From assembly GCA_048885865.1 (NCBI GenBank), contig JBHLLF010000009.1, positions 38,768 through 102,767 on the forward strand: DNA of 64,000 nt, read 5' to 3'. The first letter of the stretch is position 1. Each line of letters opens with the position of its first letter. Below are positions 12,929-23,961 of this stretch, piece by piece. Position numbers and translations under genes: made by a program. This DNA is from Candidatus Hermodarchaeota archaeon (GTDB lineage: Archaea > Asgardarchaeota > Thorarchaeia > Thorarchaeales > Thorarchaeaceae). Under the pieces are notes generated by a model. The model saw nothing but the letters and a program-made list of their open reading frames with translations, did no database searches and was not told the DNA's origin.

Positions 12929-13037
12929 GGGCCCGTTGCCTAGTCTGGTTTCAGTGAGCTTTTCGCCTCTGAAAGGCACATAGGGCGCTAGCCTTCTAAG
13001 TTAGAGGTCGACGGTTCAAATCCGTCCGGGCCCGCCA
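12929..13037 (+). tRNA. tRNA-Arg(UCU) with 31-nt D-loop intron (12949-12979, position 19/20)
   Basis: Acceptor GGGCCCG/CGGGCCC; anticodon arm CTAGC-CTTCTAA-GTTAG; T arm GACGG-TTCAAAT-CCGTC; encoded CCA; strict BHB motif at the intron. Confidence 0.93.
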
Positions 13038-19357: not shown

Positions 19358-20125
19358 ATGGCTCATCCAGGAGTAATGCGCGATTCTGAGGGACGAGTCC
19401 CTCATGTATACCTGAGAGAAGGTGATGTCGCGGAATATGTCTTGCTGCCTGGCCCTCCAGAGAGAGCAAGAGTGACAGCCTCAATGTTTGACAGTTCCAA
19501 AGAATTGGGATTCCATAGGGAATACCTCAGCTTCACCGGGGAGTATCAGGGCATTGAGGTCTCAGTGGTGTCCACGGGAATGGGAGTCTTCTCTGCGGTC
19601 GTCGCAGTTGAAGAACTCGCCGCCATTGGAGCTAATACATTCATTAGAATTGGGTCATGTGCGACGTATCAAGAGGAGATTCAACTTGGGGATAACATCA
19701 TAGCTACTGGGTGTATCAGGGACGAAGGGTGTACACTGGAATATGCACCATTGGCATTCCCGGCAATACCTGACCTATCTGTGATGACAGCACTCATAGA
19801 TTCAGCTAAGGAAGTCGGGGCCACGTATCATACGGGAGTTGTGCGAACCTGTGAGAACTTTTACTTGCGCGACCGGTCACCAGTCCTCAATGCACAATAT
19901 GCGAAACTGGGTGCTGTTGCTCTTGATATGGAGCTCTCTGCTATATTGATGGCTTCGATTGATTTGGGAAAAAGAGCTGGTGGCATTCTCACTGTGGGAT
20001 CCAACTTGGTCACGACTGAGAACCGGTATAAGGGGGACCGAATCACTGAGTTTGACGCCGGCGAGAAGAATATGATAAGAATAGCCTTAGAAACGGTAAG
20101 AAAATTGCACTCTCAAGACCACTGA
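19358..20125 (+). CDS. udp: Nucleoside (uridine-type) phosphorylase, PNP/UDP family
   Basis: LLPGPPERA, REY, STGMG, EEL...GANTFIRIGSC, DME. Confidence 0.85.
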   Translation: MAHPGVMRDSEGRVPHVYLREGDVAEYVLLPGPPERARVTASMFDSSKELGFHREYLSFTGEYQGIEVSVVSTGMGVFSAVVAVEELAAIGANTFIRIGSCATYQEEIQLGDNIIATGCIRDEGCTLEYAPLAFPAIPDLSVMTALIDSAKEVGATYHTGVVRTCENFYLRDRSPVLNAQYAKLGAVALDMELSAILMASIDLGKRAGGILTVGSNLVTTENRYKGDRITEFDAGEKNMIRIALETVRKLHSQDH

Positions 20126-20460
20126 TCCACCTCTAGACCTGTGCAGCTGCCCACAGCTTTATTCGTATTCAGAAGAACTCAACCGGACCAAAGAGGCGAA
20201 AATAGAAATGAAATACATTAGAAAACGAAAGGCTAGGAAAAAGCACTGGCAGTCACTCCCCCCATTCGAGTGGTATGCAGCAGCAGGACGATGAGTACTC
20301 ATTCACTCATCAATCTAGTTTCCCGAGGTCTTAATGAATTGACGCAGTTTCACTGACCTCGGTCCATACTTCTTCTCGAAAATTGGCATCCTTGCTACGG
20401 GCCTCTCCGACATCTTTAAGTGATTTGAAAATGCATCACCAAATCGCGAACACAAACGAT

Positions 20461-20580
20461 GCGGAGGTTGCCAAGCCTGGCCAAAGGCGCTAGGTTGAGG
20501 GCCTAGTTCAGTAGTGATTCGCGAGACTCCGGGTAATTCGTAGACCCGGGGCGCGTATTCAAATCTCGCCCTCCGCACCA
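20461..20580 (+). tRNA. tRNA-Leu(GAG) with 32-nt T-arm intron (20526-20557, position 53/54)
   Basis: Acceptor GCGGAGG/CCTCCGC; CTAGG-TTGAGGG-CCTAG; long variable arm; removing the intron restores GCGAG-TTCAAAT-CTCGC; CCA. Confidence 0.93.
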
Positions 20581-20612
20581 CCTTCTTCTTGATTCATTGA
20601 AATAGATTATTA

Positions 20613-20840
20613 CTATTCTTTGTCATCAATTCCAGGTAGATGACCCCCATAAAACCCGCCCATGCCCATGCCTTTAACCCCTCCCAAGTTTGAAGCTTGT
20701 GGTGCCGTATCTGAATACCTCGCTTGTGCAGAAGGAACACTAGTTTGCGAAGACTTGTTCCTTCTATCTTCTGGATAAAGCAAGAGAATGAGTGCGATAA
20801 TGATTACACCAGCGATAAGCCCAGTAAACCACAGATTCAA
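20613..20840 (-). CDS. Small single-TM hypothetical protein
   Basis: N-terminal hydrophobic helix and Gly-rich tail; lies between tRNA-Leu and its 3'-end copy. Confidence 0.6.
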   Translation of the reverse strand: MNLWFTGLIAGVIIIALILLLYPEDRRNKSSQTSVPSAQARYSDTAPQASNLGGVKGMGMGGFYGGHLPGIDDKE

Positions 20841-20903
20841 CTCAGTTAGCTTCCGTATTGATTTTGGTTTGAGTTGAGATAAACATTACCACGAACGAGA
20901 TAT

Positions 20904-20927
20904 TTCAAATCTCACCCTCCGCACCAC
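20904..20927 (+). repeat. Direct repeat of tRNA-Leu 3' exon (att-like copy 1)
   Basis: TTCAAATCTCACCCTCCGCACCAC versus 20558-20581 TTCAAATCTCGCCCTCCGCACCAC, 23/24 identical. Confidence 0.9.
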
Positions 20928-21005
20928 TTTTCCTATTCTCTTTGAGGACTAGCTATCTTCTTATTATCGGAATCAAACCGGAGTGTGTTTGAAAGGTGAT
21001 CTCAT

Positions 21006-21509
21006 TTGAATGAAGGGAATCACAAATTCAATGACAAACTTGTAATGACATATGCTCAATACTTCAAGGCAATGACAAGCCGGGCTGCAAGCATAATCAG
21101 GGCATTTGAATCCGCCTTTGGAAGGGAAGAAGTCCATCAAGTTCTCAAGGATTGGTCAGAGAACGCGGCGCGTAAAATGGCCCCAGACTCAATAGCTGAT
21201 TTTCAGAAGTTCAAAAACTACTGGAAGACTACATTAGAGTCTGAGAATTGGTCAAAGATTCTGACCTGCGAGTTTCTTGAAGAGTCCAATAGGAAGTTGG
21301 CGTGCAAGTATTCCGAATGCCTATGGGCGGAAACAATGAAGGATATGAATACTGAAGATATTGGTTACATTCTATTTTGCCACCCGGATTTTGAAATGGC
21401 AAAAGCAATGCATCCGAATCTAAGATTGGAGCGGTCTCGTACGCTTATGGAAGGGCATGAATTCTGTGATCACACATTCTATTGGGATGAGAAACCAACA
21501 CCTGATTAG
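21006..21509 (+). CDS. L-2-amino-thiazoline-4-carboxylate hydrolase-like (ATC_hydrolase) protein
   Basis: CLWAE...GYILFCHPDF...LRLERSRTLMEGHEFCD. Confidence 0.8.
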   Translation: MNEGNHKFNDKLVMTYAQYFKAMTSRAASIIRAFESAFGREEVHQVLKDWSENAARKMAPDSIADFQKFKNYWKTTLESENWSKILTCEFLEESNRKLACKYSECLWAETMKDMNTEDIGYILFCHPDFEMAKAMHPNLRLERSRTLMEGHEFCDHTFYWDEKPTPD

Positions 21510-21528
21510 TGGCTGTGTGCTTATATTA

Positions 21529-21551
21529 CGCCCTGCGAACCATCTGCTTCT
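21529..21551 (+). repeat. Degenerate repeat of tRNA-Leu 3' end plus trailer (att-like copy 2)
   Basis: CGCCCTGCGAACCATCTGCTTCT versus CGCCCTCCGCACCACCTTCTTCT, 19/23 gapless, intergenic. Confidence 0.55.
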
Positions 21552-21561
21552 AGGTGAGTTT

Positions 21562-22101
21562 TCACCTCACAAGCAGGATTGCGTATCTATTCATTGTCTG
21601 ATCATAGTCAGATAGAACCTCTATCGGATAACCCACAGCCCTCGCTGTTGAAAAGACATCTACAGCCATGGCTTCTGGTGGAGGTCTGGAAAGCCTCTTC
21701 TGCTTGCAGTCTTCTCTAGCGCTAACACATTCATCGCACAACGAACAGTTGTCTGCAGGGAGGATGAAAGCCTTGACTTCTCCTGAAAGAAACACCTCTC
21801 GCTCTAGCTTGAGAAGCTTCAGGTTTATTTCCTTCATTATTTCATGACGATCATCAGGATTGTCAAGTTCTATAGATAGGTGAAACAAGGCAATGTCATT
21901 ATATTCGTCAAATAGCTCCCTGCACTCGGATACTGATGGCGTGTTAGGAGGACATGCAGCGCATTGTCCATAGCTGGAGCATCCCCATGTGCATTTCATA
22001 CGCACCCATTGGGAAACAACGACTTCCTTGGGACCAATCCATTTGTAGTCATCGAATCCATGTTTCACAAACAGAGTTTCAAGATTCTTCAGACCGCTCA
22101 T
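21562..22101 (-). CDS. DUF2284 family Cys-rich metal-binding protein
   Basis: RMKCTWGCSSYGQCAACPP, CSLCDEC, RPPPEAMAVDVF. Confidence 0.85.
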   Translation of the reverse strand: MSGLKNLETLFVKHGFDDYKWIGPKEVVVSQWVRMKCTWGCSSYGQCAACPPNTPSVSECRELFDEYNDIALFHLSIELDNPDDRHEIMKEINLKLLKLEREVFLSGEVKAFILPADNCSLCDECVSAREDCKQKRLSRPPPEAMAVDVFSTARAVGYPIEVLSDYDQTMNRYAILLVR

Positions 22102-22227
22102 AGTCTATCATCCTGATGCAAATATTGGCTTGTTTTTAGATTTGCCTTTGAACGTAACCTTCGCTTTCTAGATTCCATGGGACTTTTCAGAAGGATTAGT
22201 TCTGCTAACAGATAGGAGGCTATTGTA

Positions 22228-22548
22228 ATGAGTCTGTATGATCAATTCAAAGAAGAGATGAGGGAGGTCTGCACTGAATATCACAACTTGCTCCGGCAAA
22301 AAGAAGCTCTTGAAGCCCAACTAGAAACGCTTCATGATTACATAGAAGCCACCATGAAGAAATACAAGCAGAATGAATACGATGAACCAGAAGTGCCTGT
22401 GAAGGTTGACAGAATCGAGTATATGACCGAGCGTATGAAGAGGGGTGGCAAGAAAAAGCTCAAGGAGATTCTGACAGAAAAGCAGTGGTCGGAAATTTAC
22501 ACAGAGAAGAAGGTTGTGAGCTATCGAATAACTCAGCGAGAAGAATGA
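22228..22548 (+). CDS. Hypothetical coiled-coil/basic protein
   Basis: Strong GGAGG SD; 106-aa ORF. Confidence 0.8.
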   Translation: MSLYDQFKEEMREVCTEYHNLLRQKEALEAQLETLHDYIEATMKKYKQNEYDEPEVPVKVDRIEYMTERMKRGGKKKLKEILTEKQWSEIYTEKKVVSYRITQREE

Positions 22549-22762
22549 GTCCTTTGTTTTGGACCCACCCATCACGGGGAGGCAAACCGCATGTTCAGGG
22601 TGGGTCCTTTGAGGGAGTTGTCGTCAGGAGCGTGATAGGGGGTTCCGAAGACAGAGGAACTCTCGCGCTTGGCGGGTCCGGATTGTCAAGGTGGGGAGCA
22701 AGAGAGGGCATAGGGACTCGGACTTTTTGAGAGGCCCAAGGGAACCCCCAGAGAGTCTTGCA
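22547..22762 (+). ncRNA. Candidate structured non-coding RNA / 3' element
   Basis: GC-rich intergenic region with several long stems; the G-U pairs favour the + strand. Confidence 0.45.
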
Positions 22763-22956
22763 CACTACTTACAATCATGAACCCTGTTGGGGAGATATAA
22801 GGCTGTAATGCGAATTGGGGACATTCAAGAATATGGTAATTGCGAAAAATTCGTCAAAATGAAATGGTTTTGAACGAGTAGTACATTCCACGGAGAAGAG
22901 GAATCTATAAAGGAGAACCAGTTTTTGATGAAATCAAACAGCAGGAGTGGGCAGCC

Positions 22957-23961
22957 ACGACAACTCCAAAGATAGGAATCATTGGTACAGGCAACATGGG
23001 AAGGATTCATGCCCGGGTTCTCAGCAATATTCGAGCTCTCTCGGCCGTGGCTGATACCGATATGAAGCAGGCTGAAGAAGTGGCCCAGATGTATGGCGTA
23101 GATGCCTTCAGTGACTTCGAGTCATTGATTGAGCACGCGGAGTTAGATGGCGTCATCATTTCCACTCCAACTGCAACACATGCCGAAATAGCTGAGAGTG
23201 TTGCCAAGAAACAGAATGGAATAAGAGGTATTCTGATTGAGAAACCACTAGCAAGCAACCTCAAGGATGCGCGAAAGCTTGCCGAACTCCTAAGGAAGAA
23301 GGACATCATTGTCTTAGTTGGACACTCTGAGATTTACAACCCGGTAGTTGAACGGGCATTGAACCTGATCAATGAAGGTGCCATTGGAGTCCCTCAGACG
23401 GTAATCCATGATAGGCGCGGATTTGTACAGGCAGAAAGATTGCCATCTCTCGGAGACGTGTTTGAAGACATTGGGGTTCATGATTTTGACATCATGACTC
23501 GGATAAGCAGTGGTAACGCTACTCTCTATGCTCAATGCCAGACCAAGAACGAGATTCTGAACACCGGAAATGTCACGGTGAGGTTCGAAAATGAGGCACA
23601 ACACATCTTCCATTTATCGAGGCAATATGTAGGCAGGAAAAGGAGCATGGATGTTTCTGGGACAAAGGGAACCCTGAACCTTGACCTCTTTGGACAGGTC
23701 ATTAAAGTTCAAGACCTCGATCAAGCGCCTCTGGCTGACAGCAGGACAATCCAGCTAATAGAACGTGGTGCTACAATCAAAGTGTATGGAGAACCCATTC
23801 TACAGGTGATAACTGACTTTCTACACTGCATAGAAACAGGTAGCTCACCCAAGGTTAATTTGGATGATGGAATTTTAGCCCTCGAAGTGGTTGAAGCAGC
23901 GAGAAAGAGTGCGGTCTCAGGGAAGGTCGTTGATATCAATATTCAGTCTCGACACATCTGA
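22957..23961 (+). CDS. Gfo/Idh/MocA-family oxidoreductase; apparent ACG start
   Basis: The Rossmann motif KIGIIGTGNMG begins upstream of the first ATG (22996). EKP and DIGVHDFD motifs present. Confidence 0.85.
   Translation, partial: TTTPKIGIIGTGNMGRIHARVLSNIRALSAVADTDMKQAEEVAQMYGVDAFSDFESLIEHAELDGVIISTPTATHAEIAESVAKKQNGIRGILIEKPLASNLKDARKLAELLRKKDIIVLVGHSEIYNPVVERALNLINEGAIGVPQTVIHDRRGFVQAERLPSLGDVFEDIGVHDFDIMTRISSGNATLYAQCQTKNEILNTGNVTVRFENEAQHIFHLSRQYVGRKRSMDVSGTKGTLNLDLFGQVIKVQDLDQAPLADSRTIQLIERGATIKVYGEPILQVITDFLHCIETGSSPKVNLDDGILALEVVEAARKSAVSGKVVDINIQSRHI

Follow-up and report, generated by a model that had tools for sequence, protein, structure and literature searches.

An integrase-free array of single-gene cassettes on the 3' end of a leucine tRNA gene in Thorarchaeota

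The DNA under study (the window) is a stretch of 64,000 nucleotides from Candidatus Hermodarchaeota archaeon, a member of the Thorarchaeaceae, and lies on contig JBHLLF010000009.1 (C9) of a metagenome-assembled genome (MAG) of 3.58 Mb in 117 contigs, 87% complete (G000, below its own genome); our subject is a leucine tRNA gene in it, tRNA-Leu(GAG), behind which single genes stand in a row with copies of the last bases of the tRNA gene between them. Our favoured reading is that positions 20461-22550 are the tRNA-proximal end of a gene-cassette array with three or four one-gene modules, and that the modules may be inserted by a crossover at the T loop of the tRNA gene, made by an agent working in trans; we put the probability of such a site-specific recombination at about 0.45, a little short of even odds. 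As judged by comparison of genome sequences, the anatomy of the array, its polarity, the exchange of modules among relatives and the lack of a recombinase in cis are all displayed by the loci themselves, and they support an accretion that is polar, proceeds cassette by cassette and is driven in trans; what we infer beyond this is the enzyme and the chemistry of recombination. A family-wide, integrase-free cassette array on the tRNA 3' end is regarded as real, and there is a fair chance that a new gene-capture mechanism stands behind it. No description of such arrays in Asgard archaea was found in the literature.

The features of the locus are collected in Table 1. At least three units were found in the window, each with one gene, in both orientations, and a further short open reading frame (ORF) is either a fourth unit or the oldest neighbour. 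An earlier reading made from the letters of the window only (the sequence-only reading) had described units of ~350 and ~620 bp with one gene each in either orientation, and this was confirmed, the copies being spaced by 346 and 616 bp and the three genes being the membrane (TM) ORF (-), the ATC_hydrolase gene (+) and the DUF2284 gene (-). The first copy, which that reading had placed at 20904 with 23/24 identical bases, was borne out as well: it has one mismatch in 23, no match within 3 mismatches occurred across 100 shuffles, and its counterpart is perfect (23/23) in two relatives (G015 and G002). The second copy had been given as 19/23 at 21529 and had to be corrected, the best register being 21520-21542 with 16/23, in which only the last 14 nt are tRNA-like. 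Matches of at least 16/23 arise by chance about once per shuffled 64 kb and turned up in 3 of 300 shuffles of the 2-kb downstream stretch, so that copy 2 was rejected as a repeat significant by itself (local p about 0.01), but synteny upheld its nature as a repeat. In a column-by-column alignment it corresponds to the intact tRNA 3' end which stands immediately before the DUF2284 gene in G008, G014, and G016, and its orthologue in G002 still reads CCTCCGCACCA; through this synteny only, copy 2 is accepted as a genuine repeat. The candidate third copy can be recognised only via alignment to the sequence standing before the 106-aa gene in G011, G009, and G006, which is a tRNA end or an orphan copy, and alone it is not significant. 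Copy identity thus declines away from the tRNA from 22/23 to 16/23 to ~12/23, and the fall with distance that had been read from the first two copies holds.

Table 1. Features of the tRNA-Leu(GAG) locus in the window (positions are those of the window)
Feature	Position	Strand	Remarks
Left flank, PNP_UDP_1 phosphorylase gene	19358..20125	+	Pfam 1.6e-27
tRNA-Leu(GAG) gene	20461-20580	+	encoded CCA; 88-nt tRNA-Leu(gag) by ARAGORN once insert removed
tRNA 5' exon (acceptor, D arm, anticodon arm, variable arm, T-stem 5' strand)	20461..20525	+	
Intron-like insert of 32 nt between T-stem 5' strand and T loop	20526..20557	+	
tRNA 3' exon, T loop to CCA (reference repeat copy)	20558..20580	+	TTCAAATCTCGCCCTCCGCACCA
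Unit 1 cargo, 75-aa single-pass membrane (TM) ORF	20613..20840	-	unit 20581-20903; no Pfam match
Repeat copy 1	20904..20926	+	22/23 vs tRNA 3' exon (23/24 with next base)
Unit 2 cargo, ATC_hydrolase-family gene	21006..21509	+	unit 20927-21519; Pfam PF14196, 8.4e-20
Repeat copy 2, decayed	21520..21542	+	16/23; last 14 nt (21529-21542) 12/14
Unit 3 cargo, DUF2284 metal-binding protein gene	21562..22101	-	Pfam PF10050, 4.9e-44
Candidate repeat copy 3, strongly decayed	22153..22177, approximate	+	~12/23 with 2-nt indel; between DUF2284 and 106-aa genes
Unit 4 or oldest neighbour, 106-aa coiled-coil-like ORF	22228..22548	+	
Right flank, spacer and GFO_IDH_MocA oxidoreductase gene (22996-23961)	22556..23961	+	Pfam 1.9e-19

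The same locus was compared among relatives, and the results showed that the flanking genes are syntenic across the genus (PNP_UDP_1 in G015, G010, G002, G014, and G008 with 82-95% nucleotide identity, GFO_IDH_MocA in most genomes of the genus) and that the DNA between the tRNA and the right flank varies. In G015, whose flanks are 94-95% identical, an extra 476-bp unit with a 132-aa ORF sits between the tRNA and the TM unit and is followed by the TM, ATC, and DUF2284 units, with repeats of 23/23, 22/23, and 23/23; the TM protein is 93% identical to the G015 copy and 76% to the G014 copy. In G002 the order is tRNA, an S9 peptidase unit, a perfect copy, the ATC unit, copy 2, and other DNA, so the ATC unit keeps the same two bounding copies with different neighbours on both sides. 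An acyl-CoA thioesterase unit is followed at once by the right flank in G010, and the first unit of G018 is an alpha/beta hydrolase. The DUF2284 gene stands directly behind tRNA-Leu(GAG) in G008 and G014, and the 106-aa gene directly behind the tRNA in G011 and G009; in G006, a 2.4-kb one-gene insert and an orphan copy lie between the tRNA and the 106-aa gene, and this orphan bears the flank that in G011 and G009 follows the tRNA itself. The complete genome G004 has its right-flank gene ~340 bp from the tRNA, a near-empty site. Neither the DUF2284 gene nor the 106-aa gene was found at the syntenic locus of G002, G010, and G004, and homology of the window to G002 and G010 picks up again at 22556. 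The gene content behind the tRNA is not fixed among these relatives, all breakpoints coincide with tRNA-end copies, and the new DNA adjoins the tRNA. Modules are also shared between tRNA genes: tRNA-Leu(UAG) is followed by the TM unit with both end sequences in G014 and by the DUF2284 unit in G016. In its own genome, the tRNA-Leu(UAG) gene on C12 has the identical last 23 nt, and tRNA-Leu(CAG) on C104 differs by 1 nt.

To see how far the arrays extend, the tRNA-Leu 3' end was searched as a pattern in 61 genomes of 16 genera of the family; outside the order, the tRNA-Leu genes of Asgard archaea end in another sequence, and the pattern search is therefore limited to the order. Orphan tRNA-Leu ends were found throughout the 61 genomes, in arrays of up to six copies in 9 kb. 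The units of the reference genomes (n = 40) have a median length of 921 bp and a median coding fraction of 0.84, 28 of the 40 hold one ORF, and their genes are oriented 31 vs 27; when the family genomes were taken together with 120 metagenome loci, 74 arrays with 120 units were obtained, with a median of 616 bp and one ORF in 95 (79%). The same cassettes turn up again in different arrays. The cargo is of accessory and defence type, such as ketopantoate reductase-like, GNAT, JAB, dienelactone hydrolase, other hydrolases, thioesterases, and acetyltransferases, along with OLD-like ATPase, HEPN_AbiV, Schlafen/GTPase, CxxCxxCC, PrcB_C, and many uncharacterised ORFs. When 149 unit ORFs were clustered all against all, nothing but small accessory families emerged (CxxCxxCC, PrcB_C, and GNAT among them), and a hidden hallmark gene shared by the units was rejected on this ground.

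Other tRNA genes of its own genome were scanned as the sequence-only reading had proposed, and arrays were found there too. On C54 (L001, 135-15321), eight plus-strand copies of a tRNA-Ala-type 3' end (TTCAAATCTCGCCCGGTCCACCA, 0-2 mismatches) stand in 15 kb and separate modules of 1-3 genes, with the anchoring tRNA beyond the contig start and no recombinase in the array; the cargo comprises an amidohydrolase, DUF4760, a MarR module, a methyltransferase, a flavodoxin, LVIVD, an SBP plus beta-lactamase module, and a luciferase-like gene. An orphan copy of tRNA-Gly(GCC) lies 1.2 kb downstream of its gene (C9:27460), three copies of another tRNA end, one of them inverted, lie on C88 (L003, 6391-7614), and an integrase-free segment of 11.4 kb follows tRNA-Tyr on C23 (L002, 5386-16803), with octopine-DH-like, B12-mutase-like, radical SAM, SSB-like, small GTPase, and TFIIB genes.

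The anchor itself is a tRNA gene with a perfect acceptor stem, D arm, GAG anticodon arm, and long variable arm, whose 5' exon has the same sequence in its own genome, G015, G010, and G002. Neither ARAGORN nor Rfam called a tRNA in the raw region 20460-20580 because the 32-nt insert splits the T arm, and the cloverleaf was restored by ARAGORN after the insert was removed. The insert is carried by its own genome, G010, G002, G017, G018, and G020, with three genera represented besides that of its own genome, G010, and G002, and is missing in G015, G008, G014, G004, and others, so that it is polymorphic; it is predicted to fold as a hairpin within the T arm, and no bulge-helix-bulge splice motif could be demonstrated there. 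Its own genome, G010, and G002 have one tRNA allele, intron included, yet their sequences part right after the CCA. It was also observed that the insert abuts the left edge of the repeat exactly, and that an orphan copy in G068 keeps the 3' half of the T-arm intron, with other tRNA alleles carrying variable-arm inserts instead.

The boundaries of the orphan copies bear on how the modules may enter. In approximately 60% of the orphans the identity begins exactly at T55, the second T-loop base, with any base at 54, and ends at the CCA; in approximately 35% an imperfect T-stem or variable-arm sequence stands on the left and the 22 nt are perfect; and a few longer duplications exist, one of which has 89 nt and starts at the anticodon stem. 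A T/C-rich tract follows the CCA in both orphans and full tRNAs. No conserved motif was found at the distal unit ends, and no conserved or palindromic motif upstream of the repeat copies. A copy of the final 14-23 bases of the gene (T loop, 3' strands of T stem and acceptor stem, and CCA) bounds each module. According to our favoured model, a module would enter beside the tRNA, bringing its own T-loop-to-CCA segment that completes the tRNA, and the former 3' end would be displaced downstream as an orphan and decay there; it is this displacement and decay that would give the gradient of 22/23, 16/23, and ~12/23. The modules act as independent units, which come, go, and are used again at any tRNA-Leu gene with the same last 23 bases. 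The agent would work in trans, being neither encoded in the array nor detectable in its own genome, the reaction would be a conservative site-specific recombination that crosses over between T54 and T55, where the T loop begins, and the recombinase would come from an element outside these bins or belong to an unrecognised family. Two features of the sequences favour a T-loop crossover, namely the sharp T54/T55 boundary common to unrelated units and the unchanged tRNA allele in its own genome, G010, and G002, and a perfect 22 nt beside imperfect left arms should be what is expected of hybrids between an element's left arm and the host 3' end.

A T-loop class of tRNA integration sites of tyrosine integrases is said to have been described by Williams in 2002. 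The arrays are like that class in that the block of identity runs from the 7-nt T loop to the tRNA 3' end and in that the T stem is a natural dyad around the crossover, and they are unlike it in that no integrase is present and in that the dyad in its own genome is split by the 32-nt intron at the left edge of the repeat. More generally, islands that integrate at tRNA genes likewise have direct tRNA 3' repeats flanking each inserted segment and a restored tRNA.

The lack of an integrase in the window, as claimed by the sequence-only reading, was extended to the whole of its own genome, in which no match to PF00589, PF00239, or PF01867 was found at its 87% completeness. A Pfam scan of ~80 cargo ORFs gave no recombinase, integrase fragment, or mobile-element hallmark gene, and no relative shows an integrase-bearing element between the repeats, for which we had looked. 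A resident integrase was rejected on these family searches in the genome together with the lack of any lineage integrase in 143 loci around the repeat, and a virus or plasmid attP was rejected in view of the IMG/VR result given below. Cas1 (PF01867) gave no match in its own genome and matched 0/10 genomes of the genus, though divergent Asgard Cas1 homologues might escape the model. MAGs often lose plasmids and viruses, and a missing integrase is for this reason weak evidence either way. Two further candidates were set aside: tRNA-primed reverse transcription, suggested by copies that end in CCA, was rejected on the cargo facing both ways and the CCA being gene-encoded, and Aloposons (PMC8813620) are giant-gene elements and unrelated. 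As a separate observation, 38 of the 61 Thorarchaeota genomes, several of which are at least 95% complete, are without PF00589 and hence without a detectable XerA-type enzyme.

Several results weigh against site-specific recombination at the T loop. Most orphan copies are without a recognisable left half-site. A tyrosine recombinase (PF00589) occurs in only 4 of 17 genus genomes and 23 of 61 family genomes, never on an array contig or beside a tRNA, and in the genus none of the five PF00589 loci has a tRNA in its vicinity; G020, which is 93% complete and has five perfect copies in 4.6 kb, is without both PF00589 and PF00239. No matches were obtained when five lineage integrases were compared by phmmer with the 143 loci around the repeat, and the exact 22-mer is not in IMG/VR. 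In addition, when G015 (L017, 1640-1900) is set against 20126-20560 of the window, the two differ in one contiguous tract amid surroundings of 94-95% identity, with a 270-nt indel after the PNP gene, a promoter of ~82% identity, the intron lost, and the extra unit gained, which looks like one single replacement event; this tract and the half-intron orphan of G068 look, from their sequences, more like homologous replacement than a clean crossover.

The lack of known recombinase families in genomes with fresh arrays, and the same behaviour at several tRNAs, would also fit a new family of recombinases or integrases, missed by Pfam and with its gene at another place in the chromosome, which would recognise the T-arm and acceptor DNA of the tRNA and drive a genuine gene-capture system. 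This reading overlaps with site-specific recombination as set out above and is improbable in its specific form: no candidate gene was obtained, the clustering of unit ORFs gave small accessory proteins only, and the case for it is built on absence of evidence.

The short spacing of the copies could also be ascribed to the remnants of successive larger integrase-bearing islands, in which deletion of the integrases and most cargo left short stretches between att copies, an alternative the sequence-only reading had named. Larger segments do exist, among them the 11.4-kb tRNA-Tyr segment of C23 and units of 4 kb in relatives, and it is well documented, for Prochlorococcus islands among others, that elements pile up in tandem at tRNA genes, where partial-tRNA scars and degenerate elements are then found (bioRxiv 10.1101/2020.12.28.424599). 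These tycheposon islands are like the present arrays in having a tRNA as the entry point, partial tRNA copies between arrivals, the newest and most variable DNA next to the tRNA, and mostly cargo; tycheposon-type elements, however, are multi-kb and bring a recombinase of the tyrosine or serine type, and their islands are strewn with partial integrases (bioRxiv 10.1101/2020.12.28.424599), whereas the units here have medians of 0.6-0.9 kb, one gene, and no recombinase or fragment of one. The units are filled by one intact ORF, as the coding fraction of 0.84 and the 79% of single-ORF units indicate, the ~80 ORFs gave no integrase fragments or mobile-element hallmarks, identical units with both end sequences recur in other arrays and behind other tRNA genes, and the repeats are often perfect, which speaks for recent events and not for old debris. 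Remnants of larger islands are accordingly disfavoured and we consider them the least probable of the explanations weighed here, the units being complete single genes with no mobile-element debris.

The rival to which we give most weight is nuclease-triggered copying, in which an RNA-guided nuclease of TnpB type or another site-specific nuclease would cut the tRNA gene and repair would copy an allele or a paralogous tRNA-Leu locus with extra units; the new strand would anneal via the 22-nt copy, so that one or more units and one repeat are added with no recombinase. We regard this as unlikely overall, and we favour site-specific recombination in trans over it at the probability given at the outset. 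Its attraction is that it needs no recombinase where recombinases are lacking, and the replaced tract of G015 and the intron-retaining orphan are compatible with co-conversion. A possible nuclease was also found in the arrays: in G023 and G022, the unit next to tRNA-Leu(UAG) is one of the larger ones, is flanked by 33-89-nt tRNA repeats, and encodes a 558-aa TnpB-like protein (PF07282, 1.9e-11; PDB TnpB/Cas12f matches with E of ~1e-6). Of 61 genomes, 45 have several copies of the family of this protein, the maximum being 24; about 12 of 30 copies (~40%) are no farther than 1.5 kb from a tRNA; and members occur in 8 of the 120 metagenome loci around the repeat. In 8 of 24 modules by BLAST and in two tRNA-Leu(UAG) modules by eye, part of a tRNA gene follows just past the end motif GTTCACTCA, which has been reported downstream of Asgard tnpB (Altae-Tran et al. 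2023, PMC10691335). These observations suggest that TnpB-like guides are aimed at tRNA genes.

The tie between the TnpB-like family and the 22-nt arrays is nevertheless circumstantial. Its own genome, G010, G008, and G009 have arrays but no member of the family, tnpB is carried by only 2 of the 40 units of the reference relatives, and no trace of an omega-RNA scaffold was found in array units or in its own genome. Three pattern searches for the end motif joined to the tRNA-Leu 3' end (sense or antisense) or T arm gave 0 of 86 genomes, by which TnpB with such a guide was rejected, and the tRNA-Leu guides that were observed begin at the anticodon and not at the T loop. In the TnpB-like proteins, RuvC-II has a non-canonical G in place of E, and the sharp T54/T55 boundary across unrelated units is not an obvious product of homologous repair. 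Cas1 was likewise dismissed as a partner of the family, being absent from the genus and not detected on TnpB contigs. Compared with the Asgard TnpB (OMEGA) systems, including the aCas1-associated Cas1H-Asgard-1/2 (PMC10691335), the relatives are alike in having multi-copy TnpB with the same end motif, many at tRNA genes and two inside tRNA-Leu arrays, and the present locus is unlike them in that none occurs in its own genome or the window, no Cas1 was detected beside the relatives' copies, and the cargo units are without TnpB or omega-RNA remnant. Independently of the arrays, members of the TnpB-like family (L070-L099, L139, L179) share a conserved downstream end, ..GGAACACAGAAGTTTC..GTTCACTCAC..GGGTCAG, often directly followed by a tRNA fragment; the fragments seen were a tRNA-Tyr T arm, an antisense tRNA-Arg 5' half, tRNA-Leu(UAG) from the anticodon in either sense, and a whole convergent tRNA.

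The sequence-only reading had spoken of a polarised, integron-like accretion by a trans-acting recombinase. The polar, cassette-wise pattern stood (G015, G006), and none of the outcomes that this reading had listed as refuting it was observed, but the recombinase is something we infer, and 'integron-like' can be meant as an analogy of behaviour only. The arrays and integrons are alike in their rows of mostly single-gene cassettes with short site-like repeats between them, in growth at one anchored end, in cassettes without a mobility gene of their own, in accessory and defence cargo, and in a content and order that vary among relatives. They differ in that no IntI is found here beside the anchor or in the genome, that the boundaries here are direct copies of TCAAATCTCGCCCTCCGCACCA, the tRNA 3' end, and not imperfect palindromic attC sites, that the anchor is a functional tRNA gene and not an attI with a Pc promoter, and that the cassette genes face both ways (31 vs 27) whereas most integrons are uniform. 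A likeness to CRISPR arrays and casposons can be seen in the polar insertion beside a fixed 'leader' with duplication of a ~22-nt repeat, and casposons also use tRNA 3' ends; unlike them, the arrays have no Cas1 in the genome or genus, their 'spacers' are genes of 0.3-4 kb, and no terminal inverted repeats are present.

Asgard archaea have large, bacteria-enriched accessory gene sets whose route of acquisition is poorly known, and the arrays reveal one such route, often taken and precise, in which tRNA genes are where single genes come in, go out, and are put to use again, with none of the usual mobility enzymes in sight. Should the agent turn out to be a new recombinase, or an RNA-guided nuclease together with repair, gene-capture machinery would gain a new class, which might also serve as a tool for genome engineering; if it is the conventional integrase of unsampled plasmids or viruses, the arrays mark where the missing Asgard mobilome should be sought. 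A broader and more tentative proposal, to which we give less credence than to the reading of the locus itself, is that Thorarchaeota have a general integrase-free gene capture, in which single-gene cassettes would bear the terminal ~22 bases of an essential RNA or protein gene as a tag and be inserted at the 3' end of that gene by an undescribed trans enzyme or RNA-guided machinery, with tRNA genes serving as integron-like platforms; if true, accessory and defence genes would be shuffled by this route in archaeal relatives of eukaryotes. In practical terms, the arrays account for the breaking of Thorarchaeota assemblies at tRNA genes and are a ready marker of strain-level variation.

Two minor observations were made along the way. 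Several antisense cassette ORFs run into the repeat and stop at the TGA from the complement of TCAAAT (L051, 7228-7602 and 7677-8102; L067, 2197-2622 and 2674-3138), and their last six codons are therefore repeat-encoded. The other concerns tRNA-Arg(TCT) at approximately 12929-13037 (+) of the window, which has an insert of ~30 nt in the D-arm region and is called by ARAGORN only after trial removal of the insert.

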